Shown piece after piece: positions 1,211 through 54,200 of a stretch of 64,000 nt of DNA (positions within the stretch are counted from its first letter, which is position 1; each line of letters starts with the position of its first letter). The stretch is from the NCBI GenBank assembly GCA_000004985.1, contig GG738855.1; one strand, given 5' to 3'. The DNA comes from Naegleria gruberi (lineage: Eukaryota). The notes beneath the pieces were generated by a model. The model made no database searches. It saw only the letters and a program-made list of their open reading frames with translations, and had not been told where the DNA came from. A program made the translations under genes and the position numbers.

Positions 1211-3108
1211 TTATTGGTGCCATGTTTTGGATTCATCATAAATATTAATCTTGTATCTGAAAGAAATAACCTTATTTCTTAAATTTGGTTGTTTTGGAAG
1301 GGGATCTTTGAATACAACCTTGAATTTGCCACTCTGGCCAAATGGTGAATCAATTATACCTGAAAATCTTGGTTGGTCATCAATGAGAATATCAATCTTC
1401 TTTCCAATGAAAAATTGCAGTGATTGAGTTTTGGAAGTGAGAAGATTTTTTCCAATAATTGTGTTGGCATCAACAACTCTATCAACTACAGCTTTCTTTT
1501 CCTTGTATTTAAAAACAGGAAGAGAGTTGACAAGCTGTTCTTTGGAAACATTGGATTTGTTCCACATCTTGATAACTTTACCATTGAATGCCAATCTACA
1601 CATATTCGCATCTATTTGTGTTAGAAAAGATGATCGTAAAAAACTTACTGATATCTGTATCCAGTTTGGAAGCAATATAATTAGAGTTTGGATAGCAACA
1701 CACTGGTTTTTCAAATTCAATTTTAACAAAAACATCTTTTTCTTGATAAGTTGTTTCGGTCAATTCCTCCAATAAAGAGTACTCTACCGTTGTATCGAAT
1801 ATGTTACTTGAAAGGCCTTCTTTCTTGGCTCTGGCGATAAGGGAAACATTTCCCATAACAGTTTCATGCCCAATAGATACTATTTCAATTAGTACAGAAA
1901 TGATTACTAGAATACATACTGTGATATTTTGCAGAGTTTTTGATTTCCTTCTTGAAAAATCTGATTCTAGAAGCATTTGCTAGAATTGTGTCAACAATTT
2001 CAATATAGCCTTTGTCACATGCAAAACCTCTCTCCAGCTTTTTGCTATCCAATTTTGTAACTGCAATACCAATTCGATCTCCTTTAATTGCCTTATCTAC
2101 AGGTGTTTTAAACATTTGGATGGATTTGACCTTCTTTTCCTCCCCAATAGAAGGAATTTGAATTGTTTTACCAATACTAACACTGCCTTGCAAAACAGTT
2201 CCTGTAATAATAGTTCCCTTTCCTTTGATTGTAAAACAGTGGTCAACCATATATAGGAATGGCTCATTTTCATCCTTTTCTGAAATTTTTACATGTTTTT
2301 GGAATTCAGCAATGAGATTTTTAAGTCCTTGTTCCTTTGTTATACTTTCACTTTCTTCTCTTGGATCAGCACAAACAGAAACAATTGGAGGGTTTTTAAA
2401 TTTAGTTTGGGAAAAGACATTCTTAATGAGACTTTTCTTAATCTGTAATGAAAATTAATTTCCTAAATATATTTTGAAATTACTGACCTTATCAACACGG
2501 TCCTCTCTTTGATCTGCTGGAATCATATCGACCTTATTGAGGGCAACAATTAAATTATTACATGAAATTTCTCCAATAACAATGCATTCAGCTGTTTGAG
2601 TTTGTACACCTTTCACAGCATCAATAACCAATACCATGAAATCAATAATTTGAGCTCCACCAATAATTGTTCTAATTAAACTGGCATGGCCAGGACAATC
2701 TACAAGAGTATATTGAATCCTATCATATTCAGATAATGGGGAATCAGAGTAAAATGCAGAGAAACCCAAATCTTGAGTAATACCTCTTTCTTTTGATTGA
2801 GGACTTTTATCAAAGGCTGCTGTTGAAGCGTGAGTTGACAGAGCTTTACATAAACTTGTTTTTCCTTTCAAATAAATCATTAGAATAAATTTCATTAAAA
2901 ACTCACCAGAATCAACATGTCCTATTATTATTGAAATAAGAATTGATATTAGAATTGAGAAACAAACCTAAAATTCCAACATTTACATTTAATATTCTAT
3001 GTGATGATCGGAGAGTTACATTCTCTTCTCCTCCTTGATTATTTGTTTCCGAATCTTGGTTTTGATTTGTGAACTTGATGGCAAACTGGTTTCCTTCTCT
3101 GTAGACAT
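1211..3108 (-). CDS. EEFSEC: Selenocysteine-specific translation elongation factor (eEFSec/SelB), six exons
   Basis: Spliced translation gives ..ILNVNVGILG|HVDSG|KTSLCKALSTHASTAAFDKSPQSKERGITQDLGFSAF..TLVDCPGHASLIRTIIGGAQIIDFMVLVIDAVKG..NKVDMIP (GTPase domain), ..FTIKGKGTIITGTVLQGSV.. (domain II), ..AKYHISIGHETVMG.. and ..CRLAFNGKVIK..IIDSPFGQSGKFKV (C-terminal domain IV), all matching eEFSec as I recall it. Approximate exons: 2968-3108, 2907-2921 (15-nt micro-exon), 2488-2864, 1920-2442, 1649-1879, 1211-1611. Introns of 46, 42, 45, 40 and 37 nt (GTTTGT/GTGAGT/GTCAGT/GTATGT/GTAAGT..AG). Start codon uncertain (see finding). Confidence 0.85.
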
Positions 3109-3300
3109 TTTTTATTAATATCTAACTTTTTAATTTCGCCTCTTTACAGACTTGAATATGCTTCACTGGTAAATAAATGTTTTATCTAAATATTCTCTTA
3201 AGTTATAATTGCTGATTGACTTTGTGATAATCAATCGGATCAATCATTAAATTAATTTTTAAATATTCGTGATGACATCACACAATAATTATTAATAAAA

Positions 3301-3714: not shown

Positions 3715-4391
3715 TTTAACAAATAATGCTAGTAATAGTACTACTACTGATCAGGGAACATCAGTTAAAAGTGAGGAAATAATTGAAACTAGAATTAGTG
3801 TAATGATTTCCGACGTTTTGAATAGATTTGGAAAAGTAATTGACATTGATAGTAGATCGGAAGCTATTGAGAATAGAATTAAACATTTGAAAGAAGAAGA
3901 GGTAGAGTCTGAGTATAGTTTTGGAAAATTAAAAGGTAGTATTCAGAGAAAATTGGTAGTTCTCGAATGTGCTGTAGAGAATTTGTGTGTTCTTGTGGAA
4001 AAGAATGTACAAAGAAAATTGAAATTGAGAGAATCTAAACAGGTTTTGAAAGAGCAATTGAGAGCAAACATTGAAAAATACTCTGAAAAGTGCACTCAAT
4101 TAGATGAACAGAAAGAGAAATACTCCAAGATGGAAAATTTATGGGAAAAGGATAGAAAGAACCTTGTAGATCTCATTGAAAAATTGAAGCAACAAGTAGA
4201 AAGCAAGGATCCTGAAAATGAATTCCTCAAAACAATGAAAATTCCAGAAGCTCCTAAAGCAACAGACTCTGAAGACAATACTCTTTCTAACCTTACTAAA
4301 TCTCTCCTATCACTTCCAGAAGCTTGGAAATCCTCTAATCCATCCGATTCTAATCCCCAATCTTCCAACACATCCTCTAGCTCTTCAGCCG
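3686..4391 (+). CDS. Coiled-coil protein, partial (runs into assembly gap; may be 3' part of the preceding acidic protein gene)
   Basis: Open frame ..ISVMISDVLNRFGKVIDIDSRSEAIENRIKHLKEEEVESEYSFGKLKGSIQRKL..LKEQLRANIEKYSEKCTQLDEQKEKYSKMENLWEKDRKNLVDLIEKLKQQVESK.. with heptad-like composition. First in-frame ATG is at about 3803. The frame is still open where the N run begins at 4392. Confidence 0.35.
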
Positions 4392-4903
4392 NNNNNNNNN
4401 NNNNNNNNNNNNNNNNNNNNNNNNNNNNNNNNNNNNNNNNNNNNNNNNNNNNNNNNNNNNNNNNNNNNNNNNNNNNNNNNNNNNNNNNNNNNNNNNNNNN
4501 NNNNNNNNNNNNNNNNNNNNNNNNNNNNNNNNNNNNNNNNNNNNNNNNNNNNNNNNNNNNNNNNNNNNNNNNNNNNNNNNNNNNNNNNNNNNNNNNNNNN
4601 NNNNNNNNNNNNNNNNNNNNNNNNNNNNNNNNNNNNNNNNNNNNNNNNNNNNNNNNNNNNNNNNNNNNNNNNNNNNNNNNNNNNNNNNNNNNNNNNNNNN
4701 NNNNNNNNNNNNNNNNNNNNNNNNNNNNNNNNNNNNNNNNNNNNNNNNNNNNNNNNNNNNNNNNNNNNNNNNNNNNNNNNNNNNNNNNNNNNNNNNNNNN
4801 NNNNNNNNNNNNNNNNNNNNNNNNNNNNNNNNNNNNNNNNNNNNNNNNNNNNNNNNNNNNNNNNNNNNNNNNNNNNNNNNNNNNNNNNNNNNNNNNNNNN
4901 NNN
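4392..4903. other. Assembly gap (512 N)
   Basis: Uninterrupted run of n. ORF-track entries that translate it as X (3686..5614 plus, and 4096..5070, 4377..4973, 4385..4909 minus) are artefacts across the gap. Confidence 0.99.
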
Positions 4904-7663: not shown

Positions 7664-10441
7664 TTATTTTTGTTCAACAGCGGCTGGTTCAGTCTTTTCC
7701 TTCTTCTGGTTGTGCTTTCTTTGATTATTGTGCTTGTTGTTGTTATTATTGTTGTTTGTTCTGTTTCCTTTTTGATTTTGATTTTGCTTTGAGTTCTTTT
7801 GCTTTGATCTCTTTGCTTGTTTGTGATCAGTCATCACAACGTAAGCAGTATTACTTTGCTTGGCTTCATAAAGCTTTTCGTTATATTCAACAAGGGAGGA
7901 AATTTTGTCTGACAATTGGAGGGCAAGATATTGGAGTGGAGTTGGGGCAGAGTGATAAACGACAATAGTATTGTTGGTTTGGTCAAAAGCAGCATAGAAT
8001 TCTTCAGAAATGATCATCTTGTTGACAATTGAATGCACAGATGGAGATGGGAGATCAAACATCTTAGCCATTAAATCAACAGAGAATGTTTCATAATGTC
8101 TGCTATACTTGAAAATGTAGGCCTTCAATGCAGCAACCTTAACCTTCTTCTTCAACATTTCCTTAACAGGTTCATTGTCAGGAATCAAGCTCCATATATC
8201 TTCCAAAGCAAGGAGGGTCTTGTAAGCTTCTTCCCAAGCACCTGATGAAAGTAAATGGAAAGCAGAGTTAATACGTTCCTTAGTATTTTCTGGTTGACCA
8301 ACATAGTGTTGACGGCTAAAGTTTTCCAAAACACGTCTGAAAGCCTTGTTAATAACCTTAGGCTTAACGTTGGAGAATGAATGCATAGCCATATTTGGAA
8401 CTTCCAAAAGCAATGCACAGATCAAGTGAATTCCTTCAATCAAGTCAACACTGATATGTTGATGGTATGGAATCAATCTACTTCTTTCAATCTTTTCATT
8501 TTGTTCCTTCTTTTGAACAGTACCAGTTTGTGGTTGGAATCTGTTGCTTGACAAACCTTGAGCAAGCAATTCTTTTTGCTTTTGAGAACTGTAAAGTTCA
8601 AGCAAAGCACTATGAGATTCTTGGATCAAACCATTCTTGAAAGCACAGATACCAATTTGAGCAATAACTCTGTTGAAAAGAATTTGGGTTGGAATATCAA
8701 AATGATTAATAGTATCTTGCAATTTGCTGGTGACAAGGAGATTTCTAGCTTCAAAGAATTTACCATAAACAGCTCTGTGATAAATGTGCATCAAGAGTGT
8801 TCGTATCTTGGAATGTTCTGTTCCATTTTCATATATGATAGTAGAGAGATGGGACAAAACCTTCGTCAGATTTGGTTCAATGACATCCGGCGAGTCAATA
8901 ACGAATGGGTCAACGGTTGGAGTAACTTCTGTTGAAACCATGAGCTTTTCTTCAGCAATCCAATTTTCCTTAGCTTCTTCAAGTGATTTAAGAGCATTGG
9001 TTCTTTGGGCAGAGAGAAGGTTATCGTGATCTTCTTGCTTTCTATAATATAAATGTTCAAATAATTTGAAGGCAACACGAGCAAGATTTCTCTTATTGTT
9101 TCTCTTAGAGTAGAATGTATAGACTCTTTCTCCAGCTTCAATGAGCAAGTATTCATCCTTCAATCTCTTTGCATAATCTTGTGTATGTGGATCAGTATAT
9201 TGCAAGCTAGTAATAAATTCATCGTACAATCTTTCCAAAATTGATGCAATATTACCCTTGATGACAACTTGACCAGCTTTGTTAGGTTCAGAGGTTTCAC
9301 CTTCAGGAAGTGATTCACCCAATGTTTGATCAACAGATTCAACAATAACTAATTCAGGATGATCCTCAATAAGTTTAACAAGTCTAATAAGACCGAAACA
9401 AGCATTTTTCCAAGTATCAATTGAAAGGTAGTTATTTGTTCCCTTTGGTAAATCAAAGTTAGTAAGAACAATCAAAAGCAATAATTGAATTCTAGTCTTT
9501 GGTTCATGGGAGTGAGCCAAAAGAATCTTCAATTGAAGAAGTGATTCCTTTGGATTAGTTCCCTTGTATCCTTTAACTCTTCCGATTTCAGCAATCTTTT
9601 CTTCAATAGTGCCTGATGTTAAATCAGCCATAAGCCTTTGGATATCATTGAGTGGAACTGATGATGTCTTTGGTTGTTTAACTTTAACAACAGGTTCGGC
9701 TTCATCTTCAGTATCTTGGTAAGTTTCTGGTTCAGTTTTACATGCCTTCATCAATTCCTCGTATGGCTTGTTGGCCTTTTTAATTTTGCTGTAAAGTGTT
9801 GTGAGAAGTTTGGCATCATTAGTTTTTAAATCGGCTTTCTTATCCTTGGCTTCTTCCAATCTATCTTCCAAATAAACCAAGAATCTAACATAAAGATTAG
9901 GAACCTTCTTCTTTCCTTTGTATTCATCTAATTTTTGAATCTTTTCAAGAACCTTGCCGACTTCAACAATATCGTCAGAAACAACCTTCCAGTTGTTGTC
10001 CATAATACTATCTTGAACCTTTTCAGTTATTTCACGCAATTCATCTAAATACTTTTCTCTGTGAGACTTGACTTCAGCTCTTTCTTCTTCTTCTTCTTCT
10101 TCCTCTGATACCCATTCATCATCAGAGTAATCACTTTCCTCTTCTTCGTCCGAATTTTCAAGGAACCATTTTTTCCTCTTATCGTCAAGCTCGGATTGTG
10201 CTGATTTAGGTTCTTCTTTGGCTGGTTTTTTTGTTTCTTTATCTTCCTCATCAGATTCTTCATCAGAACCTTCCTCATCATCAGAATCTACCATTTTAGC
10301 TTTATTAAAGAAGCCTTTTTTCTTGGTGGATTCTTCCTCTTCTTCAGAATCAGTGATTTCTTCTTCAGAAACTTCCTCTTCTGAACGATCTTCCTCTTCG
10401 TCACTGTCGACAAAGTTTGCAGCACGAAAATATGAGCTCAT
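7664..10441 (-). CDS. EIF3C: Eukaryotic translation initiation factor 3 subunit C (eIF3c/NIP1), single exon
   Basis: 925 aa. Acidic Ser/Asp/Glu N-terminus (MSSYFRAANFVDSDEEEDRSEEE..), central ..HFDIPTQILFNRVIAQIGICAFKNGLIQESHSALLELYSSQKQKELLAQGL.., PCI-domain region ..DLPSPSVHSIVNKMIISEEF.. and basic Asn/Lys-rich tail, all matching my recollection of eIF3c. Confidence 0.9.
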   Translation of the reverse strand: MSSYFRAANFVDSDEEEDRSEEEVSEEEITDSEEEEESTKKKGFFNKAKMVDSDDEEGSDEESDEEDKETKKPAKEEPKSAQSELDDKRKKWFLENSDEEEESDYSDDEWVSEEEEEEEERAEVKSHREKYLDELREITEKVQDSIMDNNWKVVSDDIVEVGKVLEKIQKLDEYKGKKKVPNLYVRFLVYLEDRLEEAKDKKADLKTNDAKLLTTLYSKIKKANKPYEELMKACKTEPETYQDTEDEAEPVVKVKQPKTSSVPLNDIQRLMADLTSGTIEEKIAEIGRVKGYKGTNPKESLLQLKILLAHSHEPKTRIQLLLLIVLTNFDLPKGTNNYLSIDTWKNACFGLIRLVKLIEDHPELVIVESVDQTLGESLPEGETSEPNKAGQVVIKGNIASILERLYDEFITSLQYTDPHTQDYAKRLKDEYLLIEAGERVYTFYSKRNNKRNLARVAFKLFEHLYYRKQEDHDNLLSAQRTNALKSLEEAKENWIAEEKLMVSTEVTPTVDPFVIDSPDVIEPNLTKVLSHLSTIIYENGTEHSKIRTLLMHIYHRAVYGKFFEARNLLVTSKLQDTINHFDIPTQILFNRVIAQIGICAFKNGLIQESHSALLELYSSQKQKELLAQGLSSNRFQPQTGTVQKKEQNEKIERSRLIPYHQHISVDLIEGIHLICALLLEVPNMAMHSFSNVKPKVINKAFRRVLENFSRQHYVGQPENTKERINSAFHLLSSGAWEEAYKTLLALEDIWSLIPDNEPVKEMLKKKVKVAALKAYIFKYSRHYETFSVDLMAKMFDLPSPSVHSIVNKMIISEEFYAAFDQTNNTIVVYHSAPTPLQYLALQLSDKISSLVEYNEKLYEAKQSNTAYVVMTDHKQAKRSKQKNSKQNQNQKGNRTNNNNNNNKHNNQRKHNQKKEKTEPAAVEQK
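10081..10103 (-). repeat. (GAA)7 on the coding strand inside eIF3c, poly-Glu
   Basis: Forward strand reads tttcttcttcttcttcttcttcc; translates to EEEEEEE in the acidic N-terminal region of eIF3c. Confidence 0.8.
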
Positions 10442-14508: not shown

Positions 14509-17500
14509 ATGAGCAGCGATACCATATCAACTACAACAACATCTTCATCATCATCATCTAACTTTACAACACAATCCGGAGTGAATGTGCAAGTGCTTTT
14601 AAGATGTAGACCACCTAATGATAAAGAAAAGGGACAATCCATCTCTGTTGAAACCTTACCATATATGAGAAAGGAATTAAAGATTCATCAAAAACTTGTT
14701 CATGGAAAGGAAATAACAAAAACATTTACTTTTGATAGAGTGTATGGTCCACAAACAACACAAAAAGAATTCTTTGAAGAATCCATCAAATCCATTGTTG
14801 ATGAAGCCTTGGATGGTTTTAATTGTACAATTTTTGCTTATGGTCAAACCAGTTCTGGTAAAACATACACGTAAGTTTATATCAATTAATCTTAATTATT
14901 AATTACAAATAATTACAGTATGGAAGGAAGAAGAGATTCTAATGATGTGACTGACACACACTCTGGTGTCATTCCAAGAAGTATCTACCACATTTTCAGA
15001 ACATTGGAATCTAATTCAACTGAATACACTGTTAAAGTTAGTTGCATGGAATTATATAATGAAGAATTACAAGATTTACTCACAGATAGACAGAATAAGC
15101 TCAAAATATTCGATGATAGTACTGGTAGAAAGGGTACTGTTGTAGCTGGTTTGGAAGAAATCAATGTTAGGGATGCCTCTCAAATCATTTCCATTGTTGA
15201 GGATGCCCAAAAGAGAAGACAAATGGCTGAAACTAATTTGAACAAATCCTCAAGTCGTTCTCACTGTATTACTACAATTACTATTCATATGAGAGAAGTT
15301 AACGATGAAGGTGAGGAATTTATCAAGACTGGTAAACTCAATCTTGTAGATTTGGCTGGTAGTGAAAATATTGGTAGATCAGGAGCTGTTAAACAAAGAG
15401 CTAAGGAAGCTGGTATGATCAATCAAAGTTTGCTCACCTTGGGAAGAGTTATTACAGCTCTCACTGAACACAGCCCACACATTCCATACAGAGAATCAAA
15501 GTTAACTAGAATTTTACAAGACAGTTTGGGTGGTAAGACAAAGACTTGTTTGATCGCCACTATCTCTCCATCAATTTTGTGTATTGAAGAAACTTTAAGC
15601 ACAGTCGATTATGCTCACAAAGCTAAGAGTATTAAGAACAAACCTGAAGTCAATATGAAGGTTTCTAAGGCCCAATTGATCAAGGAAATGTCTTCTGATA
15701 TGGAAAAACTCAAAGCTGAACTTAATGCCCAAAGACTCAAGAACGGTATTTACATGGCACCTGAAATTTATGAAGAAACTAATAGAAAATTGAAAGAACA
15801 AGAAGCCACCATCAGGGATATGGAAGATCAACTTCAACTCAGAGTCAAAGAATATGAAGAATTATCCATCCTCTTTAAAGAAAAAGAGAGAGACCTCCAG
15901 AGAGAAATAGCTGAACATGGTGAAACTAGACAAACACTTTCTTCTACAAGAGATACACTGAAGAGAACAGAAATCGATCTCAAGAATACCAAGGTTGAAT
16001 TGGGAGCCACTAATTTTGTTCTTGGAAAGACTCAAGAAACCGAGGAACAACTTTTATCTCAAGCTCATTACCTTTTGAATAATCTTAAAGAAAGCATTTC
16101 TGATGTTGATGGATTCATTTCAAAAGTTGACAGAAAGGCTAAAGTTGAAAATGAAAATCAAACATTGATTTCACAATTCAAAAATACGATGGATGAAAAG
16201 TTTGGTAGATCAGTTGATGAGGTTCATCTACTCCAAGCCACTTTTGAAGCACTTAACAGCTCTGCCAAGACATCTGTTTCTGAATTCATTATTGAAAAGG
16301 ATGCTCATACAAAGAATGTTAGAGATCAACTTGTATCCATGTCTGACCTCTTTTCTACATCACAAAATGAAATCATCCAAATGATTGCCAACAAATCTGA
16401 TAGCCAATCCAAGACTTTGGACGATTTGTCTTCCACCAATCAATCATTTGAAGCTACTCTCATCAATAACATGATGACTATGAAGAATGCCTTTGAAACA
16501 TCAATTGGTATCATTAACGAACAAATTGTTGCCCAGAGAAGTGAAATGCTCAATATTCACACTTTCTTTGTTGAAACTCTTACTAGAAACACAAAGTTTT
16601 TGGAAAATTTTGCTGGTAAACACTCTGAAGTGATGAAGGGTTTGAAACAAGAGATTGAACAAACTGTTACTGACCATATCAATCAATCTAATAACAATAG
16701 TCAAAAATTGAATGAAATGCTCAAACAACAAAAGCTTCAAAATGCATCCCTTAAGCAAGAATTGTTGAAGAATTTTGAAAGCCTTATTGACAATACTTTT
16801 ACTTCACAAGAAGTAGAGTTAACCGAGAATGTACAAACAATCCAAAAGTTCTTTGACTATTCTGTCAACTCTGTCCAACAAATGGATGGATCTGTCAAGA
16901 AGAACACTGATGAATCATTGTTCAATTTGGAAAAGATCAAGACCAATCTAGGATCTAATCAACAAGATGCAATTCAATCCATGACCAAGTCAAGAATTAA
17001 CATTGAAAATTTGATGGATAATATTTCAGAAGAAAATACCAACCTTACCACCAACATTAATTCTTTCTATAACAATACTAAGAAAGCTATTGGTTCTAAT
17101 ACTTCATCTCTCGATTTGTTTGTTAATACCTCAAAGCAATCCCAAAAGGTCTTTATGGATGAATGTTCTGCCTCATCATGCAAGAGCATTTCTACCTTCC
17201 AAGAATACCACAATCAATTGCAACATCGTTCTGACAACTACCAAAATCGTCTATCAATGTTTGCTAACACTCATCTTGAACTTCACAATTCTCAACATGA
17301 AAAGGTTAATGAATATAAGAATCAATTTGTTTCTGAAAGAATGAATGATATGAAGCGTAGCTTGGATACATTTAGTTTGAATACTGATCAACCAACAGGA
17401 ACAACTCCACAAAAGAAGAAGAGAAAGCTTCCTGAATCTCTTCCAAAAACTCAACCAAGACAAGAATTGGTTGAATTGTACAAATTAACTTTACCAGAAT

Positions 17501-17781
17501 CATTTGAAGCTGAAGAAGTTTGTTCTGTCTCCACACCAGACTCTGATAATATGGAAGATGTTGAAGCTGATTCCATTAGTGTGTCTAGTAACAAGGAAAA
17601 TGTTGATGACAATAACTTATCACCAATAGCAATCGTACCAACTGTAAAATCTATCAACATTCCAATGAAGAAAGTGAGCTCTGAACCTACTATTGTAAAG
17701 AAGCCAATTGTTAAAAAACCAACTATTACTAAGGTCTTGAAAAATAGTGCTCCAAATTTTGGGGTTTCTTCTTTCAGATAA
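14509..17781 (+). CDS. KIF11: Kinesin-5 (Eg5/BimC-type bipolar mitotic kinesin), two exons
   Basis: Exon 1 14509-14870 ends ..GQTSSGKTYT; 48-nt GTAAGT intron 14871-14918; exon 2 continues MEGRRD... Motor motifs SSRSHC, LNLVDLAGSENIGRSGAVKQRAKEAGMINQSLLTLGRVITAL, HIPYRESKLTRILQDSLGG. Long coiled-coil stalk. C-terminal BimC box ..DQPTGTTPQKKKRKLPE... Confidence 0.9.
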
Positions 17782-17891: not shown

Positions 17892-20256
17892 TTATTGTCT
17901 CCTATTTACACTCTTCTTCACCTTGGAAGCTTTCTTATAGGCAAGATAATAGTTAAGACTCTCTGGGTCTTCTTGTTGAAGTCTTTCAATTTGGAGCTTT
18001 TCGAATTTTTCACCCTCATCCAACACATCTTCTTTTCCTTCCTGATCTAATCCTCTGTATCTGGAACTTCTAGATGATTGAGTTGGTCTATTGTCTTCTT
18101 CTTCCATGTACCTTTCGTCGTAATAGGCTTGGAAATCAGCTACAAGAGATTGTCTCAAAGTTTCTAAGGCCTTCTCAAGATAATCAATTTCGGATTTCAA
18201 CATCTTTCTTTCCTCAAAGGATTGCTTGTATGTTTCCTTTCTTTCCTTAATGCTTTGGAAGAATAGCATTTCTTCTTCATCCACAATATCATCTCCCACT
18301 TTATAATAATTATAGCGAACTTTAAAACAATTTCAACAACTTACAATGTGCATTTTCAACTTGTTTCTTATCAATCTTGGTCTTTAAATTATCAATATCT
18401 GCCTTGATATCATTAAGCCTTTGGGTTACATTCTTGAAGAGAGATTTCTTTTCCTTCAAGGAAGCAGAATTTTCCTTAATACTTTCACTTAATTGTTTTC
18501 CAACTGTGTGTTTAAACTCCTCAAAGGCATCGTTTCTGGGCATGATAATCTTGCTGGCAGTTTTTGACCTTTCAGTATCAGGAACAACAGCTGAGGTAGA
18601 TCTTTCTTCCCTTGCTGATAAAACTGTAGCTTTCTTTGTTTTCTTTTGGAAATCAACATTTGGTTTTGCCTCTCCAAATCCAAAACCAGTCTTACTTTCA
18701 ACTTCACCAACTCCATTTTCCTCATGAATTTTCTCTTCATGGATTTTTCCTGCAAAATTGGAAGCTGGAGCTGTTTGCTGTTTTTCTCTGTTAGAAGCTG
18801 AATGAATAGACTCTGGTTCTGTGAAAGAAGAGGCCTCTTTCAACAAGGTTTTGAATTGTACGAATATTTCCTTAATTCTTCTGATGTTTTTAATTTCCAA
18901 CTCTTCCACTTCTCCATTTACATAGCTTCTAATTTCCTTTCTCAATTCAACCTTTTGTTCCTCGGTGTATGGGTCATAATTTGCTTGATTGATTCCTCTC
19001 AATTGATCGTGCATGGATAGTTCTTGTTTCAGCTCTTTAATTTCCTTTTCATACTTTTTAATGAGAGCATCTGGGTTCATATGAACATTAATCATTGCTT
19101 CGTTGGAAACTCTCATCATTCTAGTGGCGAATTTAAGCGTACCAATTGTTTCTTCAATATGTTGTTCTTCTCCCCATACGTTCGCAATCATCAAAGTTTT
19201 GCAATTACCTCCTAAAGAATCCTTTAAGAAATAGGTAAGCTTGGATTGTCTGTAAGGGATGTGTTCTCTTGTTGGATTTCCCAATGCAATAACAACCTGT
19301 TCCAAAAACGAAAGTGACTTGTTGATGTATTTTGCTTCAGTGAGAACAAGTCCACTAGAGTGAGTTTTAGAAACTCTTTCACTACCAGCCAAGTCAACCA
19401 AATTCAACTTGGATTGAACGGTTTGACCTTCTGATTCAACTCTACTTCTACTTTCCAAATACATTGTAAAAACACAGTGAGATCTTGTTGAGGCCTTGTT
19501 CAATTGATGTTCACAGATAGCTCTGTTTGTTTCACCTTCAAAAAGCATTGATAAGGCTTCTTCCTCACTATTAACAATGTGACATGACAATCCTCTAACC
19601 ATGATAGTTCCCTTATTATCCTCCATAATAACCATATTGTCATCGTATGCATCATTTTTAGCTTTTGCCAATTGAGTGTCACTAATATCAGATAATAAAT
19701 CAAATAATTGTTCATTATAGATTTCCATATAAGAAACTCGTAATGTAAATGATTTTTCAGGATAATTTGACATTTCGGCAAACACTTGTTGAATTGCTCT
19801 TGGTATTAAACCTCTATTCTTATAATTGTTGGCAGCTCCAATCATGGTGTAGGTCTTACCTTTTTGATTGTTTCAATAATTAGAAATTATAAACTCAAAA
19901 TACAAACCTGAACCAGTTTGACCATAGGCCATCACAGTTCCATTATAACCTTCAAGGAATGATTTTGTAATATCATAACAACATTCATTAAATACTGTAT
20001 CTTGTGATACATTATGAAGTGTTTTATCAAATTTGAATGAATAATCTTCCTTCTTTGTTTCCAAATAATTTACATTTCCCGATTGTTTTCCAGATCTTCC
20101 CTTATTCTTAATCTCAATGCTCTTTTTTGATTCATCAAGAACAATCACATCCTGAGCAAAGAAAGCAGTCGGTCTAAATTATCATTGTATTAATAAATTT
20201 ATAAAATTCTTCACGTACCTCGTTCTGACACAAACTTGTACTGGGGTGTTGACCAT
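17892..20256 (-). CDS. KIF9: Kinesin-9 (KIF9/KLP1-like axonemal kinesin), four exons, 741 aa
   Basis: Exons 20219-20256 (MVNTPVQVCVRTR), 19908-20173, 18345-19859, 17892-18298. Introns 45, 48 and 46 nt. Motor ..YGQTGSG|KTYTMIGAANNYKNRGLIPRAIQQVF..VSYMEIYNEQLFDLLS..SRSHCVFTMYLESRSR..LNLVDLAGSERVSKTHSSGLVLTEAKYINKSLSFLEQVVIALGNPTREHIPYRQSKLTYFLKDSLGGNC.. closely resembles KIF9 as I recall it. Confidence 0.8.
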
Positions 20257-20389: not shown

Positions 20390-23155
20390 TTAGTTAAAGA
20401 AGAATGTAATGTCAGAGAATGTTTTTGGAGTTTGTGGAACTTTTTCAATTAGAGCATTTTCGATTGGAGAGTCAATGATGACCTTAAAGTCAGTATTAGT
20501 GAGATGCTTGGCAAAATATTTGAGAGATGGAATGGAGAGTGGAACATATCGTCTATCAGGGCAGTAGAGTACAAAATTAATGGAGGAGGAAGGTGAGGTA
20601 GCATCCTGTTCACTGTTTCCTGGTGCAGTTTGTTCTTCATTGTTGGTTGATGCTGGTGGTTCTTTCAAGTCCTTAAAGTCATCTTTAGAATCTTTGGTTT
20701 CCTTGGTTGGTTTTTGAGATGGTGAATCATTATTATTGGAAAGTGATTGATTTGGTGGAGATGAGAGAATATATCTCAAATTTTGTCTAATATTTGTCAA
20801 GACCTTTTTCATTTCGTCGTCTACACTCGAATTGAAGAACATGATTTTAGCCAAATTGAGGAAATCACCAATCTTGACGAAAATTGAAGGATCTGCTTTG
20901 TGTATCACATCTGAATCAGAAGGAATGTCATAGTACTTTTCCAAGAATGCTTGTTGCTTTGATCTATTTTGCTTGGTTATTTTAATTTCCAAAATCCAAT
21001 TAAGAATTGTCTTTTTGATTTGACTAGCTTTTTCTGATACTCCTTTGTATTCCTTAGTTTGTAAACATGAATCATGACCAGACATGATATCCAAAAATTG
21101 AGAAATGTGGCTTTCCTTTGATCTGACGTTATTGTTGATGAGAACCTGTTGTAACTTTTTTCTAATCTTGTTAATTCTCAAGTAGGAACTGACAATATAG
21201 GCACTGGCAAGCTCTGTAGAACTAATCTTGTTTCCTGAGGCATTAACATTGGCACTGCTCTTGGAAGCATAATCGAAAATTTGTGTCAAGAAGAAGTGAA
21301 TATAGGCAAGTTTGTACTGATGTTCGAATGGAGCTTCTTTCAAGTGCAAAATCAACTTTTCATGAATCTTGTCAAGAATATTTTCCCATATTTGAATCTT
21401 CTTTTCCAAACTGTATTCTTTAGTTCTGATAGGAATATCCAAGTTTGGATTCTTTCTTGGAGTGGTTGGTGATGAACCAGAACCGTTGCCATTGATTACT
21501 ACAAGACCAGCTCCTTGTGAAAGACTAGCTTGACGCATTTCTTCAAAGTTTTTCATGTCTTGTTGTAATTTGGCACGTTGTTTCATTTTGTTAATGGAAT
21601 CAGAGAAAATCTTCTTCATTCCAACAGTTGGAAATTCAGAAATTGATTGTTCTGAAACATCTGAAGTAGTGTCAAAACTCTTTCTGAACATGGAGGTTCC
21701 ACCAGTTGGAGTTTGAGGGGAAGGAGAAAGATAAGAACTCGTTGATGGACTTCCATACAAATTATTTCCAATACCATTTCCCATAGGAAGACCATTTTCA
21801 TAACTTGAAGGAGCAGAAGAGGAAAGTATGTCATTTGAACGACCAGCTGAATCATAGAGGATACTGTTTTGTTGTGAATTTTCGTCACTAACGCTTGAAC
21901 GTAATGAATCCATACTACCCATTCTTAAATGAGAACCAGCAACAGGTGACATGGTTGTGTGCACTCTTAATTCAAGTCTGTCATCATTGACTGGTGAGCT
22001 AGAGTAAGGAGAAGAACCCAAATAGGAATATCTGGTTGATGGTGAGGAGGAAATCATTTGCTTTCCCAATTCATGAATGGTTGGTGAAGAAGACAGCGCA
22101 GGAGAAGAACCAACACCCAAATAAACAGGTGGTGATTGAGAACTTGAACCAGCTCTAGAACGTCCACTTCCAGTAATCAACACGCTTTGACTACTAGGTC
22201 TGGTTTGAATTGCTATAGCAGTTGTAAGTTGTTGGACAGATGAATTCTCATTTTCTTCATCATCTGATGAAGAGGATTCTCTATTTTCCTTTGATTCATT
22301 ATTTGTATTATGAGCGAGTATTGCACTACTGATATCAGAAATATTATTTGAGAGTGCTTGAGTCGAGTGATCGTTAGCATTTGGTTCGGAAGAGGTACTA
22401 TTCATTGATGCATTATTACCACTACCATTGTTATCATTGCTAGAATCTGTCGATCCCTCAATTCTACCACTACTAGCACTATTATCACCAGAAGAAGGAG
22501 AAGTGGAAGAGTTTGCAGTATTAGTATTGACACCTTTCAATGCACCTCCTCCATATTTACCAAATTCCTGTTGCTCTTGATGATATTGTGAAACCTTACC
22601 ATAATAGACAACAGTTGCACTTCTTCTTTTCATCTTATCCAAATTGACAATTGATAAATCCACACCATGATAATGAGAAAGAACAGTTTCAACAACCTTA
22701 TCCAAATAATTATTTCTTTGAGTGACTGGATCTTCTACTGTCAAAATACTCAACAAATTATCCAATGATTTGTTTCCCTTCAATCTAATCATATAAAGTA
22801 ATTGAATGATGGATCTCAAATAGAGAAACTTTAATCTTTTTGTCTTCATGTGATTAAAAATCATATAAGTTAACTTGATGTATTCCATTTCATCACCATC
22901 ATTATAAGATCCATCATCACCATTCATCTTATCTAGTGCATGTTTAACTAACATGGATAAATATTGTGGTTGTGTCTGTAGTAAGTAGAATACAAATCCT
23001 ATATGTTGTAGTAAACGTTCTCGCTTTTCCCTTCTTAGGTTTTTAACAGTATCATCTTGTATTGAATTGGAATTAGAAACTTCCATAATGTTGGAACTTT
23101 CACTCTCCGAGAAACTCTCAAAGAGAGGATAAGAATTACTATTATTTTGTCCCAT
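20390..23155 (-). CDS. IQGAP-related RasGAP-like protein (GAP-related domain plus RasGAP C-terminal region), single exon
   Basis: 921 aa. ..FVFYLLQTQPQYLSMLVKHAL.. matches the IQGAP GRD stretch LFYLLQTNPQYLAKL; ..KFLYLRSIIQLLYMIRL.. follows. Long Ser/Asn-rich low-complexity insert. N-terminal MGQNNS fits an N-myristoylation consensus. Confidence 0.6.
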   Translation of the reverse strand: MGQNNSNSYPLFESFSESESSNIMEVSNSNSIQDDTVKNLRREKRERLLQHIGFVFYLLQTQPQYLSMLVKHALDKMNGDDGSYNDGDEMEYIKLTYMIFNHMKTKRLKFLYLRSIIQLLYMIRLKGNKSLDNLLSILTVEDPVTQRNNYLDKVVETVLSHYHGVDLSIVNLDKMKRRSATVVYYGKVSQYHQEQQEFGKYGGGALKGVNTNTANSSTSPSSGDNSASSGRIEGSTDSSNDNNGSGNNASMNSTSSEPNANDHSTQALSNNISDISSAILAHNTNNESKENRESSSSDDEENENSSVQQLTTAIAIQTRPSSQSVLITGSGRSRAGSSSQSPPVYLGVGSSPALSSSPTIHELGKQMISSSPSTRYSYLGSSPYSSSPVNDDRLELRVHTTMSPVAGSHLRMGSMDSLRSSVSDENSQQNSILYDSAGRSNDILSSSAPSSYENGLPMGNGIGNNLYGSPSTSSYLSPSPQTPTGGTSMFRKSFDTTSDVSEQSISEFPTVGMKKIFSDSINKMKQRAKLQQDMKNFEEMRQASLSQGAGLVVINGNGSGSSPTTPRKNPNLDIPIRTKEYSLEKKIQIWENILDKIHEKLILHLKEAPFEHQYKLAYIHFFLTQIFDYASKSSANVNASGNKISSTELASAYIVSSYLRINKIRKKLQQVLINNNVRSKESHISQFLDIMSGHDSCLQTKEYKGVSEKASQIKKTILNWILEIKITKQNRSKQQAFLEKYYDIPSDSDVIHKADPSIFVKIGDFLNLAKIMFFNSSVDDEMKKVLTNIRQNLRYILSSPPNQSLSNNNDSPSQKPTKETKDSKDDFKDLKEPPASTNNEEQTAPGNSEQDATSPSSSINFVLYCPDRRYVPLSIPSLKYFAKHLTNTDFKVIIDSPIENALIEKVPQTPKTFSDITFFFN

Positions 23156-31331: not shown

Positions 31332-32015
31332 TTTTTTTAAAGAGTGTCTACAAAGTTGGCGGGAAATATTGTATCATCGAAATTTGATCCATTTTGTATG
31401 ATCAACCAGGCTATTGATTCTGTGTTTCCGAAAGTTTATAAGATGGTGGTCCATTTGTGAAAATTATTGTCAAGGCTAAGTCCAAAATTTTTGAATTACA
31501 CGCTCAGTAATACTAACCCAAAAACCATTGGACTCACAAGCCAACTGCACTACAACACAGTTAAGCACTGACGAAACAATAAAAACAGAAGTACAAAAAC
31601 GAGACAACCAACCAACACAAGAAAAGAACAACACGCAGTCTAAGTGGGTCAAAGGAGGAGATAAATCACAGTTAATGTCCTGTCTAAGCAAACCAAACAA
31701 AATTTTGGAAGATTAGATTGAAGAATTCAATTGATAACCTATTATCAAGTAGTATTAAGAAGCATTTCTTAGGAGGACATATTCACCACTCTCAATAACG
31801 CCAGAGCAAAATTCAAAATGTTGGCTCTCGCTCAGCTTTCTTTTAAGCATTTTTGAGGACAAGAATTTTGTTTTTATCAAGTTTACAATAATATTGAAAA
31901 AGATATTGAAAGTGAAGGAAATCTCATTTGATCAAAATTGATTGAAGACGCACTAACTTTTACTCAACATGTACGAGTTTGTGCGTGCTCACAAACCCCA
32001 ACTAACCAACAAAAA

Positions 32016-32831
32016 ATGTCAACACAACAACCACAAGACTCTGATAGATTCAAAAAGCAATTTTGGCAGGATCCCAAGCTGATGGATGATAGAGCTAATC
32101 TATACCTTGGTTTCTATGCTCAAAACTTGATAAATAGGGCAAACATTGAAGAGTTCACAACAAAGAATAAGAGAATTGACATTCTAGATCTCTGTACTGG
32201 TACTGGATTGCTTGCATTCCAAGTTTATGATGTTGTAAAAGATCTTGATGTTCATACTAATATTGAGGCAATTGATTTCTCGGCTCCACTCATCAAATTC
32301 GCCAAAGAAAAGAAAGAAAAATTGAGGGCCAGCGTTTTGAATTTTCAAGAAATGGATGGCCAAGAATTGAAATTTGAAAATGAGACTTTTGATTTTGTAT
32401 TCTCTAACGCTGGTGTTTGTTTTTATCCTGACTTTGTTAAGGGTTTCAAAGAGATACATCGAGTTATGAAGCAAGGATCAAATGCTTTCATTAATGCATG
32501 GGCTTATGATTTTCCAATGGCCATTCCAATACAATCTGCTCAAAAGCATGGAACAATGAAAGATACTAAAATGACTTTTCAAACACTCAGCGAACCAGAG
32601 AAATTCACAGAATTATTGAAAGAATCAGGTTTCTCTGATATTTCTACAGACTCGATTTCTCACAAGATTAGAGTCAAGTTTGGCGAATTTGTAGAAACAT
32701 TCAATGGTAATCCATCTCTATTGGATGAAAAGGTTTTGGCTGACACTGCACTTGCTTTCAATGTAAAAGAGGATAACGATGAAATTGAACTAAACACAAC
32801 TATGATTGTTGCCTCTCTCACAAAGAACTAA
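32016..32831 (+). CDS. Class I SAM-dependent methyltransferase, substrate unknown
   Basis: MSTQQPQDSDRFKK.. from the ATG at 32016 (the ORF track begins at an upstream non-ATG codon). ..ILDLCTGTGLLAF.. is motif I (GxGxG); ..FDFVFSNAGVCF.. is the post-I motif. Confidence 0.6.
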   Translation: MSTQQPQDSDRFKKQFWQDPKLMDDRANLYLGFYAQNLINRANIEEFTTKNKRIDILDLCTGTGLLAFQVYDVVKDLDVHTNIEAIDFSAPLIKFAKEKKEKLRASVLNFQEMDGQELKFENETFDFVFSNAGVCFYPDFVKGFKEIHRVMKQGSNAFINAWAYDFPMAIPIQSAQKHGTMKDTKMTFQTLSEPEKFTELLKESGFSDISTDSISHKIRVKFGEFVETFNGNPSLLDEKVLADTALAFNVKEDNDEIELNTTMIVASLTKN

Positions 32832-40830: not shown

Positions 40831-40987
40831 CGGGCTTCTTATTTTGGGATTTCAAACTTCTAGTTTGAAACCTCCTTTCTTTGTTAAAGATACCGTAAAT
40901 GAAAATTTCTAATTAGTAAACTTCCTTAAAAGCAAATTTACCGTACTTTTAACTATTGATCAACGTGTTAAAGTGTATCACCTTAAT

Positions 40988-43309
40988 ATGGATTTACTGT
41001 ACAAGCTTGAGCCGAGTTGTTGCGTGGGTAGAGCTCAATCCACGCACCAACTCACCTCAAGAAGTTCTTCATTCATAAAGCAGATTACCTTGGTACACAG
41101 AATTAAAAAAATCGAAACACTGAATCAAATGAGCTCTTTTTCACAATTTGTAATAAGCTCTTCAACAGGACCTTCTTCTGTCTGCCGCTGTCCTACCTGT
41201 GCCTTTACACAGTATAATCCATTTGTGGCTGCAAATGAAGGCAGATATTCCTATGTCATGAGATGCATGGTACACATGTGTGTTACTCATAATGTATCTC
41301 CACCTGTTACTTTTTCCACTGATAATAATACTATAAGGAAATGCATAATTGCATGTAATGATACCGACAACCTCCATGCAGAAGCAGCTCGAGAATATGC
41401 TCTCATGGATATTGTGAGAACTCTTGGACATCATGTCAACCCATGCATCTTTGATCTCTACTCCAGCTACCTATTTGAGGTAAACCACAGCTGGGCCTTA
41501 TCATTATGGTTGGAAGCAACCAGATTCATTGCCTCAATCAATATAACAATCTCTAAAAAGAGTATTCTTATTCTAGAAAATATGTTCGAAATGATTTATT
41601 CCAAATTAACAGATAATGAAGATTATGAACACCAACCAGATGATCTTCAATTCGTTGACAACATTTGCCATATTTTCTATAAAAGTAATCACTTCCCAAA
41701 AGAACTCATCTCCAAGCTCTATCTGATCGTTGATTGTGATAATGGGATGGAGCTCGTTCCCTTACTCAAACAAACTGGTACCTATCTTGAATATTTAATA
41801 GCAAGGAATGACCCTACTCCAGTAAAGGAATTGGATTGTGATATACTGAAATGGAACTATCAAATCGTTCCACCAGATGATCTGTCAGAGCGTAGACTTT
41901 ATCGTTTGCTGTACTTTAAAATACGGTTAGGCTTACCAAGTTCTGTAACTGACTTGTTTAATTTCATGTTTGTTGAGCAATTGATTGGTGACTCACCAAT
42001 TAAGGAATTGTTGGTTGATAACTTTGAAACATACATTCAATCCCATCCAGAGCATGCAGAGGCTATCAGAGCTACTCTCCTTGAAACCACTATTACCTAT
42101 GCTTATGAGGGTAAATGGGATGTGGCTGGATTGAATATAAGAATTTTGGGAAAGATGGGGAGAGAATATAATGATTTGGTCCATTTGATCCAGTCGTGTG
42201 TTAACCATTATAGACCTAATGAACTGAATGAATTCTTTACGGAATTCTTGATAGATGTTCTTTTCCTTTTTTATAAGGAGAAGCATAATTTTTCACTTCA
42301 GCAAATACAAGCAATAGAAAATCTCTTCAATCTCTTTACGGAACATCTTACGCCTCTTGATTCGTGCTTTGACCTTTCTGAAAGACAATATATAGAAATA
42401 TTGGATTTAGCGTTGTCATTCAAAGAGAACAGGTCCCACAGATACCAAGGAATAACAAAAAAACTAGTTTCTGCATTCGAAAGTGCATTACACTGTTGTG
42501 TGGAAAGCACAGAGTTTCTATTGCAGCTGTTTTGTGAAAGGTGGGCTAACAGCTTGGATGACCATACTCAAGCTTCTAAATTCCATGAGCTATTCGAAGA
42601 TGACACCATTTGGAATCATGCTCTTAGCTCAGAAATCCAAAAAACAACTATATCACGTATTCGAATCCTGAATAAGCTCTTATCAAACAGACCTCTTCTT
42701 GATTTATTCCTACCACAAGAAACTGCAAGAGATCATCTTGGTTACATTTTAGGTGTCACCTCTCAATCTAATGTTGTTGGTTATCGTAAGAACAGTCCAC
42801 ACTATCAAGAGTTTCTGAGGTTTGGTACTTTAGTGAACAGTGTTCTGGAATTAATTGATCAAGACGTTTATAACGGAGCTTTACCTTATGAGATTTACAC
42901 CATATCAATCTACTTTTCAATTTTATGTAAATTCTATGCAGAAGAAGCCAAAGATCAAGAGCTTCAATCCTTTGACAGCTTTTTAAAAGTAATTCTAGTA
43001 ACTGCTGATGAAAATGGTTATGACCATAGTGTTCTCCACACTGTCAAACTATTAACTCAAAAGAAGGTTTATCTTGAAAATTCTGAAGCAACCTTGACTC
43101 TCTTTGGGATTTGTAAACTTTTAAACCTGATTAATTATGTTATGAACAATGATACCAGTGATTCATATGATTTTTCCGAAACTTTGAATTACTATCAAAA
43201 TCAGCCATTAATGAGAGATGCTCCACATCAAAACACAATTCAAAATCTAATTGAAAAGCATCAATTATTGAAGAATTTATCTCAAAGCAATCGAATGACT
43301 GATGAATAA
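40988..43309 (+). CDS. Hypothetical protein (~774 aa), single exon
   Basis: Long uninterrupted frame starting at ATG 40988 (MDLLYKLEPSCC..; the ORF track begins at GTG 40973). Predicted helical, no recognisable motifs. Confidence 0.5.
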   Translation: MDLLYKLEPSCCVGRAQSTHQLTSRSSSFIKQITLVHRIKKIETLNQMSSFSQFVISSSTGPSSVCRCPTCAFTQYNPFVAANEGRYSYVMRCMVHMCVTHNVSPPVTFSTDNNTIRKCIIACNDTDNLHAEAAREYALMDIVRTLGHHVNPCIFDLYSSYLFEVNHSWALSLWLEATRFIASINITISKKSILILENMFEMIYSKLTDNEDYEHQPDDLQFVDNICHIFYKSNHFPKELISKLYLIVDCDNGMELVPLLKQTGTYLEYLIARNDPTPVKELDCDILKWNYQIVPPDDLSERRLYRLLYFKIRLGLPSSVTDLFNFMFVEQLIGDSPIKELLVDNFETYIQSHPEHAEAIRATLLETTITYAYEGKWDVAGLNIRILGKMGREYNDLVHLIQSCVNHYRPNELNEFFTEFLIDVLFLFYKEKHNFSLQQIQAIENLFNLFTEHLTPLDSCFDLSERQYIEILDLALSFKENRSHRYQGITKKLVSAFESALHCCVESTEFLLQLFCERWANSLDDHTQASKFHELFEDDTIWNHALSSEIQKTTISRIRILNKLLSNRPLLDLFLPQETARDHLGYILGVTSQSNVVGYRKNSPHYQEFLRFGTLVNSVLELIDQDVYNGALPYEIYTISIYFSILCKFYAEEAKDQELQSFDSFLKVILVTADENGYDHSVLHTVKLLTQKKVYLENSEATLTLFGICKLLNLINYVMNNDTSDSYDFSETLNYYQNQPLMRDAPHQNTIQNLIEKHQLLKNLSQSNRMTDE

Positions 43310-51284: not shown

Positions 51285-54200
51285 TTATTCAGAAGAGGTT
51301 GAGGAAGAAGATCCGTTTCTTCCTTCATTGCTTATTGTTGGAGGATTGATAACAATAAGCGGAATTTTGAGGCATTTCTTAATGAGCTGCAGAGAGTGAA
51401 GGAAAAATCTATAACCATTTCTAGAGTTCTCTGATGGTGTGAGTCTACTGTTGGCCAACTGACCACTATTTGTATAAACAATTTGCATATCCATCAAGAA
51501 TTCAAGAGCTATTGACATGACAGATTCAGGGAAAAACAGTAAAGTGCAGTCTGGTCTGAAATTGAGTAAACAAATAATGGCCTCACTCAAATCCAATAAA
51601 TCTGAAAATGAAAGAATAAATACAGGGAAATCTTGTGCAGAGTTGTAGGATTCAATATGCGTGATAATTTGTGTTGGATTCTCACTTATAGACGAAAGTT
51701 TTACAAAGTTGACGAACTTGTATCTGTCTGATTTGGATTTTGGTTTACGACCATACCCAATGATTGGACAATGGAAAGGTAGGTTTGGAAGGCTATCGTG
51801 GAATACCCCAGAGTTAACACTTTCATTTTGAATATTAAGCCCTTTCTTGATACATTCCAATATCCATTTCTTTCTATCACTTTCGACTGGTGAAATGTAT
51901 TTGAGCTCATCTTCAGAGTAGAAACAAAAATATTGAGGTTTGAATTTCATCTTTCCATTTCTCTTATTCTCTTGAGAAACAACTCTTTGAAGGGAAAAGT
52001 TTCTAGAAATAAAGTGGTCAAACATTAATTCCCAAGGAAGAACTTGTAAACTCCTACTACACAACAAAATTAATTGAGAATTAGGGTAGCAGAGCTCAGA
52101 TAGTCTTGGTAATCCGGAAAAATCTGTAGATCTTGGAGTAAGAGAGAAGAATTTACTCTTCATTCTCTTAAATAATCCAATATAATCAAACTTGTCGAGT
52201 TGTTTGTTAATTCGTTCGTATTTCTTCTTATGTCTAATATTGGGATGATAGTCGTAAGGACCTCTAACAATATTTCTCGATAAATGTTCAATAAGAGAGA
52301 ATGTATTGTCAACTCGAATATTAATTTTCTTATCTTTTCTTGGTTGACAAATCAGACTAAAGAGATAATCTTCAAGTTGGGGAATCACATTTGCAGAGTA
52401 AGCTGGTTTTTGTGAAACAGATTGGCTAGACGATTTGGAGTGTTCACTCTTATAGAATGAGTATTTAGAGTCTGTTGATTTCTTTTCTTCTGATTTTGGT
52501 GAACTATTGTTAAGAGTAGGTTGATTTTTGCCAAGTTTTTGATAGATTATTTGTCCTGTCTTTGGAGTGTAGAATGTAATGACTGAATCAATATGGATAA
52601 TATACACTAGTTTTTCCAAAGTATTCATTCCAAGATTTCTAGTGGATTCAATAGATGAATAATCGATCAAGAGTGACTTCATATAGTCTATTTCTTCTGA
52701 TTTTTGTGCATCTTCAAGTTTAATGTCTACGTATGATGGAAATTGTTGGGAATTCTTTTGTTTAACAATTGACATTAGGTGATAAAGCCTTCTCATAGAC
52801 TCTTGGTTTCTAAAGTTTAACTCTTTCTCAGAAAGATGATGCTTTTTTGCATGAAGTTTCATTCTAAAGATACATCCCCAGATTTTCTCACTAAGCAGGT
52901 CGTGAGGAGAAGGGTAATCCAAATATCCATCTGAAGATTTTGATCCATTTGATGATTGAGTGGATTGTGATCCTGTGCCAGGTCCCATTTTCAGTAAATT
53001 GAAAGACTTTAAGCTTCTCCCAGAATTGCTCTTTACGGAGGATTTTCTTCTTCTCCTCAGGAATGGAAGAGTTCTAACAGAGTTAATCTGTGTATTAATC
53101 AAAAGTGATTCATATATCTTATTTTTAGTTACCAGTGATATTTCTTCTACCTCGGATTCTGAAGATGAATCTGAGTAGGTAGAGTCGTATACAGTCGAAT
53201 CATTTGATTCTGGAGAGGTTCTCTTAAGTATCTGTTCAATTTCTGTTTCTAACAGAAGGTATGAATCAATGATAGATAAGTTATTATTAATCAATTCCTT
53301 AGATCCAAGACAGAACATTAATCGTACAAGACGTTTCAACAATGTTAAGAGTTTTTCAAGGAAAGATGGTGGTGCACCTTTTGAAACGACCACTTCAGTG
53401 TCATTGATAAAGAGTGTAAAGACAACATCTCTGCAGTGCTTCCAAAATATTTCGGCACTTGTTCTCTTGCCTTGTAAAAATTTGGCTTCTGCCATCGTTA
53501 TGTAACCATCGAGAGCAACAAGGACTGAGGTCGTTTTCAAAGCAACCTCAAGTGCAGGAAGTATGTGCTTTGTCTCAATTTCTTTCAAGTCCAACTCCCA
53601 GCCATCACTCTTAGATAAAATTAACAAGTTAGGATCAACACCACAGAAAACTATTGGAACAATTAAATATTCTATCTGGAATCTGGCAATGAAAATATCT
53701 ACTTTTGCAGCATTTAACTCGTTTGTACAAATTATATATAATTCCTTTGATTTGTAAAGGCAATCAAGGGCATCTAGTAAAACTTCTTCTGGGTTGTTGT
53801 AAATTGACCTCTTATTAATTAAACTGCTATCCATAGCGTAATTATATGTGCTTCTCCCAAAAAATTCTCGTAGTCTTTCCACTAATTCAATTTTGTTTGT
53901 ACTAGTGAGGGTGGAAGGGAAAGAAACAGGACTAGTATCTTGACTAATCTTTTGCAAAATTTTTCCTTTTAGGAAAAGAAGGTCAGCCAAAACATACGGA
54001 GCTGTACATTGAGATAAAGCAATATTAATGCAGCATAAAGCATCAGAAAATCGTGATAATTTAAGGAAACATCTAGCTGTGATTTCCAATATTTTGATAG
54101 GATCCACTCCGCTTGTTTCTAGAATTGAAACCTGTTCTGACATTAACACACCCAGTCTAAAAAGAACAAAATCACACTCCTTTAGCCATCTCTTTTTTAG

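Follow-up and report, generated by a model that had tools for sequence, protein, structure and literature searches.

The region 1211..3108 on the minus strand of the 64-kb window, the whole stretch of Naegleria gruberi NEG-M DNA analyzed here, very probably contains a functional nuclear gene for the selenocysteine (Sec)-specific elongation factor eEFSec (eukaryotic SelB). Judged from its sequence, the product is an intact member of the eEFSec family that carries the defining features a sequence can reveal, with the basic motif of domain IV in reduced form. Joining open reading frame (ORF) pieces at GT..AG sites gives an intact gene of seven exons, and the spliced coding sequence of 1656 nt extends from the ATG at 3108-3106 to the TAA at 1213-1211 and encodes 551 amino acids with no internal stop codon. 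The first-pass annotation had proposed an intact eEFSec-type factor, distinct from EF-Tu/eEF1A, at 1211-3108, which is exactly the span from the ATG to the TAA of the joined exons, and the two peptides it quoted are found in minus-strand ORFs, TLVDCPGHASLIRTIIGGAQIIDFMVLVID in 2455..2895 and FGQSGKFKV in 1211..1735. The assignment to eEFSec and not to EF-Tu/eEF1A is borne out by the presence of the eukaryote-specific domains III and IV, by a best match to solved eEFSec structures, and by the retention of the Sec-pocket and GTPase residues.

Exon Structure and the 5' End

The overlapping minus-strand ORF pieces behind the exons are located at 2455..2895, 1885..2250, 1596..1976, and 1211..1735, and the complete model has six GT..AG introns of 32, 46, 42, 45, 40, and 37 nt. 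The last five introns have GTNNGT donors and a CTAAY motif (once TTAAT) shortly 5' of the AG, and they look like one coherent intron population. Exon 2 (2968..3054, minus strand as for all exons and introns of the gene) ends with ...RILNVNVGILG, the start of the conserved G domain, and its translation aligns with the eEFSec sequences of Naegleria lovaniensis, Naegleria fowleri, Willaertia, and metazoans, with residues Leu-29, Asn-30, Asn-32, Gly-34, Leu-36, and Gly-37 invariant in an alignment of eight sequences. Intron 2 (2967-2922, 46 nt) and intron 3 (2906-2865, 42 nt), both GT..AG with a CTAAT motif, enclose exon 3, a microexon of 15 nt (2907..2921) that encodes (G)HVDS(G) at the center of the P-loop GHVDSGKT. 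The invariant residues Gly-37, His-38, Asp-40, Ser-41, Gly-42, and Lys-43 are regained only by including the microexon.

Exon 4 (2488..2864) encodes the core of the G domain, with the RGIT of switch 1 (Thr-71), Phe-76, the DCPGH of switch 2 (Asp-97 and His-101), and NKVD (residues 151-154). It is followed by intron 4 (2487-2443, 45 nt) and exon 5 (1920..2442), which completes domain I, carries domain II and its Sec-pocket residues Asp-234, His-235, and Arg-290, and begins domain III. Intron 5 (1919-1880, 40 nt) leads to exon 6 (1649..1879), containing the remainder of the eEFSec-specific domain III, and intron 6 (1648-1612, 37 nt) to exon 7 (1211..1611), which encodes the linker and domain IV (the C-terminal RIFT barrel, including FGQSGKFKV) and terminates with the TAA at 1213-1211. 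Introns 4, 5, and 6 each occur at the same position and in the same phase in N. lovaniensis.

The beginning of the gene is defined less sharply. In the frame of the conserved core, a TAG lies upstream and no ATG precedes the core; the one ATG located just ahead of it, at 3108, does not share its frame, so that an extra short intron is needed at the 5' end. Enumeration of single GT..AG introns yields 15 open solutions, in which the donor at 3086 (GTTTGC) is the sole one that resembles the GTNNGT of the other introns; with the acceptor at 3055 it forms a 32-nt intron and with the acceptor at 3034 a 53-nt intron. A clear branch-point motif (CTAAY) is absent from both the 32-nt and the 53-nt versions, unlike the other five introns. 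The model adopts a tentative exon 1 (3087..3108), starting at the ATG and predicted to encode MSTEKET(N), and an uncertain intron 1 (3055..3086, 32 nt, GTTTGC..AAG), and a 99-nt intron following an alternative start at 3247 is another formal possibility. The N-terminal extensions of the Naegleria species show no conservation in the alignment, and homology therefore cannot decide between the solutions; given several GT..AG combinations, the first ~8-17 residues of the model are unsettled, with the G domain itself unaffected. The 15-nt HVDSG microexon in the P-loop and a 5' end whose exact position cannot be fixed from sequence alone are details that are new but minor.

Domains, Active-site Residues, and Family Assignment

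Pfam profiles cover the 551-amino acid product from the G domain to domain IV. GTP_EFTU matches residues 31-196 (E = 1.2e-31), above its curated cut-off, and GTP_EFTU_D2 (PF03144) matches residues 243-307 (E = 5e-11, 43.2 bits compared with a cut-off of 30.3). The eEFSec-type domains follow, with euk_SelB_III (PF21208) at residues 323-429 (E = 1.1e-29, 103.9 bits compared with a cut-off of 27, profile positions 3-120 of 120) and eEFSec_4th (PF21131) at residues 449-525 (E = 2.7e-15, 57 bits compared with a cut-off of 27, profile positions 3-74 of 119). The features that define two other families are missing. For EF-Tu/eEF1A, no match to GTP_EFTU_D3 is found by Pfam in the 551-amino acid protein, and the E value for EF-Tu lies ~94 orders of magnitude behind that for eEFSec. 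For bacterial SelB, the same scan gives no match to the winged-helix domains with which the C-terminal part of that factor binds the SECIS hairpin directly, and the C terminus instead matches the eukaryotic domain IV.

In a phmmer comparison with solved chains the best matches are the eEFSec chains 7zjw_E and 5izk_A (E ~5e-131), a similarity far above what chance would give, with weaker matches to archaeal SelB (E = 1.4e-52) and EF-Tu (E = 5.6e-37 or weaker). Residues 389-523 of the query align with residues 428-556 of chain 7zjw_E. Domain IV keeps the FGQSGKFK motif, and the C-terminal FRYKINIYD, a last strand with a hinge-like character, aligns with the vertebrate FKRYMFD.

The G motifs are intact, with GHVDSGKT at residues 37-44, Thr-71 in RGIT, DCPGH at residues 97-101, and NKVD at residues 151-154. 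In vitro UGA read-through by human eEFSec depends on each of the residues Thr-48, Asp-92, His-96, Asp-229, His-230, and Arg-285, and Phe-53 sits in the Sec pocket (PMC5059743). Human Thr-48, Phe-53, Asp-92, His-96, Asp-229, His-230, and Arg-285 correspond to Thr-71, Phe-76, Asp-97, His-101, Asp-234, His-235, and Arg-290 of N. gruberi, all seven of which are invariant in alignments of 8 and of 30 eEFSec sequences. The basic motif 549-KKRAR-553 of human domain IV has been proposed to face SBP2. In the three Naegleria species, and likewise in Willaertia, the segment aligned with it reads NLRNK and the 20-25-residue Lys-rich loop that comes next is absent.

These features bear on the possibility that the gene encodes a SelB/eIF2-gamma/EF-Tu superfamily paralog that serves some other function, as an aSelBL-like or eIF2-gamma-like protein would. 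The G domain and domain II are common to all such factors, and the match to the domain IV profile is limited to positions 3-74 of 119, with a degenerate KKRAR motif. Against this, the eEFSec-specific domains III and IV both score above their Pfam cut-offs, the similarity to eEFSec exceeds that to archaeal SelB by ~80 orders of magnitude and that to EF-Tu by ~94, the Asp/His/Arg of the Sec pocket that distinguish eEFSec from EF-Tu are present, and the G motifs are intact, unlike those of aSelBL as described in the literature. A paralog with a different function is thus very improbable.

As an eEFSec, and by homology with the human factor, the N. gruberi protein would bind GTP through its canonical EF-Tu-type G domain. 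The selenocysteinyl end of Sec-tRNA(Sec) would be held by a pocket of positive charge that Phe-76, Asp-234, His-235, and Arg-290 form between domains I and II, whereas the extra C-terminal domain IV may contact the tRNA and the SBP2-SECIS complex. Sec-tRNA(Sec) would then be delivered to in-frame UGA codons in selenoprotein mRNAs. We infer the biochemical activity, the partners, and the substrates elsewhere in the genome by this analogy, and it is the literature that supports the existence of such substrates.

Conservation, Pathway, and Genomic Setting

A homology search among 5.8 billion proteins, with the best 120 matches listed, identifies the closest relatives in N. lovaniensis (77% identity), N. 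fowleri (75-76%), and Willaertia magna (68%). The other 117 matches listed have 45-51% identity, and those with names are mostly annotated as selenocysteine-specific elongation factor from animals and protists. The N. lovaniensis protein stands for a 90% cluster in which two N. fowleri models are also included. The proteins of N. lovaniensis (XP_044543647.1), N. fowleri (XP_044558636.1 and CAG4709028.1), and W. magna are colinear with the N. gruberi model, starting at the G domain and continuing to the C-terminal ...NIYDE(S/T)KTW(H/Y)Q.

All eight exons of the N. lovaniensis locus could be mapped exactly, and three of its seven introns match N. gruberi in position and phase (..VDK|IKK, ..KYH|(I/V)S, and ..DTDI|(N/H)AN). 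The introns around the P-loop differ. The 15-nt microexon encoding HVDSG belongs to N. gruberi; two codons downstream, N. lovaniensis contains one of 5 nt (ACAAG, locus positions 10248-10252), and the N. lovaniensis gene has two further introns without a counterpart in N. gruberi. Both N. fowleri database models are wrong exactly at the P-loop, one reading through the intron and the other without TSLCK.

Comparison of the 551 codons with N. lovaniensis by the Nei-Gojobori method gives pN = 0.139, pS = 0.715, and dN/dS = 0.067, with dS near saturation. A second comparison is provided by an environmental contig (ENA ERZ929261, run ERR1078381, PRJEB11402, labelled "metagenome") that is 99.3% identical to positions 1-2955 of the window, with 18 mismatches and three gaps, which places a second N. 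gruberi-like strain or allele in that public sample. Seven differences fall in the coding exons, six synonymous and one non-synonymous (N323T), and the sole indel inside the gene is intronic, at 2901. Both comparisons point to purifying selection on the exon model, which at the level of sequence they indicate to be strong.

The first-pass annotation had predicted that tRNA-Sec, SBP2, SPS, and selenoproteins would be encoded in the genome, and genes for such partners of the factor (tRNA-Sec, SPS2, PSTK, SepSecS, SBP2, and SECIS-bearing selenoproteins) were sought in the same 64-kb window. ARAGORN detects no tRNA gene there, and Rfam finds no family at the gathering threshold and neither SECIS nor tRNA-Sec at E ≤ 5, with two chance-level matches, MIR396 and GlsR14, the only ones at that level. 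No Sec-pathway gene or selenoprotein family is present among the 27 long ORFs of the window according to the Pfam scan. The remainder of the N. gruberi genome amounts to ~41 Mb. EFSec is reported, in an abstract of 2013, as one of the genes found and verified by RT-PCR. With no Sec partner gene in the window, the case for genome-wide use of Sec in N. gruberi rests on the literature. The Sec machinery of N. gruberi has been published (da Silva et al. 2013, as represented in papers citing it), SPS genes are reported on scaffolds GG738852.1 and GG738883.1 (Mariotti et al. 2015), and the methyltransferase-SPS fusion of N. gruberi is functional and complements SPS function (summarized in Mariotti et al. 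2015). According to Leitsch et al. (2021), who cite da Silva et al. (2013), the large thioredoxin reductase (TrxR) of N. fowleri has a predicted Sec residue. The remark in the first-pass annotation on loss of the pathway from fungi and plants does not apply here, since the organism is a heterolobosean amoeba.

It could still be asked whether the gene is a decaying relic or pseudogene left after the loss of Sec, as in some insects, nematodes, most fungi, and land plants. Such a reading would fit a window with no Sec-pathway partner or selenoprotein gene, an ATG brought into frame only by assuming an extra short intron, and the fact that no N. gruberi protein model was returned from the protein collection. 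It is opposed by a frame that stays open across six introns, by the dN/dS of 0.067 against N. lovaniensis, by a within-species ratio of synonymous to non-synonymous changes of 6:1 with the indel confined to an intron, and by the invariance of all the essential residues. The published work also describes the full machinery and a Sec-type TrxR in Naegleria. The probability of a relic is accordingly very small, and a functional eEFSec gene is much the better description of the locus.

The surroundings of the eEFSec gene are those of an ordinary N. gruberi scaffold. Three intronless ORFs of the window are identical to the N. gruberi NEG-M proteins XP_002680039.1 (an eIF3 subunit), XP_002679937.1, and XP_002679939.1, which belong to one scaffold of 613,270 nt, and these identities establish the organism. 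Pfam assigns the 27 long ORFs to an acyltransferase, eIF3c, ARMC9, two kinesins, WD40 proteins, a UbiE/COQ5-type methyltransferase, a P4-ATPase, SF3b1, DnaJ, a sterol methyltransferase, a START-like protein, and a dual-specificity phosphatase, the others having no match. Those with no match at E ≤ 0.001 include the ORFs at 51285-56603 (minus strand, 1772 amino acids), 20390-23155 (minus strand, 921 amino acids), and 40973-43309 (plus strand, 778 amino acids).

A possible origin of the gene as a contaminant or a recently transferred sequence foreign to the host genome, for which one could cite that the next-best matches listed after Heterolobosea are mostly from animals, is the least probable of the alternatives, as the GC content (~0.32-0.34) is the same as that of the flanks, spliceosomal introns with consistent CTAAY/GTNNGT features occur throughout, orthologs sharing intron positions exist in two other Naegleria species and Willaertia, the flanking ORFs are exact N. 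gruberi NEG-M proteins on the same 613-kb scaffold, and the independent ERZ929261 contig has the same gene with the same downstream neighbor.

Several other features of the window can be described. An assembly gap (a run of 512 N at ~4385-4900) splits a plus-strand gene that has an acidic Ser/Lys/Glu-rich ORF upstream of the gap and a PF01553 acyltransferase domain downstream of it. This gene has its ATG at 3301, at a distance of 192 nt from that of eEFSec, which makes the pair divergent, with a short intergenic region in common. At 31938-32831 on the plus strand there is a stand-alone ORF for a UbiE/COQ5- or type-11-like S-adenosylmethionine (SAM) methyltransferase, with the P4-ATPase next to it and no fusion to SPS. 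Broadly, the N-terminal domain of the methyltransferase-SPS fusion described for N. gruberi belongs to this class as well; the SPS loci given in the literature map to other scaffolds. Two kinesin motor genes, at 14920-17781 (plus strand) and 18322-19845 (minus strand), are arranged tail to tail ~540 nt apart, one with a kinesin-5-type microtubule-binding tail and the other with a KIF9 domain, and both must have upstream exons because the ORFs start inside the motor domain (profile position 96).

Annotation Status and Comparison with Known Systems

The N. gruberi eEFSec protein was not returned by the homology searches, and the 551-amino acid model is absent by exact look-up, whereas the protein collection does contain further N. 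gruberi NEG-M proteins encoded on this scaffold. The search seems to be filtered by length, as a query with the C-terminal 210 amino acids returned only proteins of up to ~367 amino acids and missed the N. lovaniensis ortholog, and for this reason the missing model is no proof that the gene lacks annotation. In the N. gruberi reference set, the gene may have been missed or wrongly modelled. A bolder combination of proposals is possible but doubtful: that eEFSec is absent or broken in the N. gruberi set because of the 15-nt P-loop microexon, that the P-loop is a hotspot of intron turnover, and that the trimmed heterolobosean domain IV would engage SBP2/SECIS in a manner unlike the metazoan factor.

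Taken as sequence evidence permits, the N. gruberi eEFSec is real, presumably functional, and already known, the Sec machinery of the organism having been published in 2013. Retention of the decoding factor in this amoeba agrees with da Silva et al. (2013) and later comparative work, and in itself it matters little. The practical value is one of annotation: an exon structure with a microexon missed by predictors could be used to repair the N. gruberi and N. fowleri models, and UGA-containing genes in the N. gruberi genome, such as that for the large TrxR, are likely to be truncated in automatic annotation.

With EF-Tu/eEF1A the N. gruberi protein has the G domain and domain II in common, and similarity is restricted to residues 30-310 (E = 6e-37 or weaker), the Asp/His/Arg Sec pocket of N. 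gruberi eEFSec contrasting with the aminoacyl site of EF-Tu. Archaeal SelB (PDB code 4AC9) and bacterial SelB have homologous domains I-III and the same role in delivery of Sec-tRNA(Sec). The alignment with archaeal SelB ends at residue 349, and domain IV of N. gruberi is of the eukaryotic type. Eukaryotic factors need SBP2, in contrast to archaeal and bacterial SelB.

The closest likeness of known structure is to human/mammalian eEFSec (PDB codes 5IZK, 5IZL, 5IZM, and 7ZJW), which has the same four-domain order and aligns with query residues 26-370 and 389-523 at ~47% identity. N. gruberi differs from human eEFSec in having no vertebrate insertion in switch 1/domain I, in its unrelated N-terminal extension, and in domain IV, where the 20-25-residue Lys-rich loop is missing and KKRAR is replaced by NLRNK. 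The P-loop, the switch 1 Thr, the switch 2 DxxGH, the NKxD, and the Phe/Asp/His/Arg of the Sec pocket are identical to those of the mammalian factor, and FGQSGKFK is kept.
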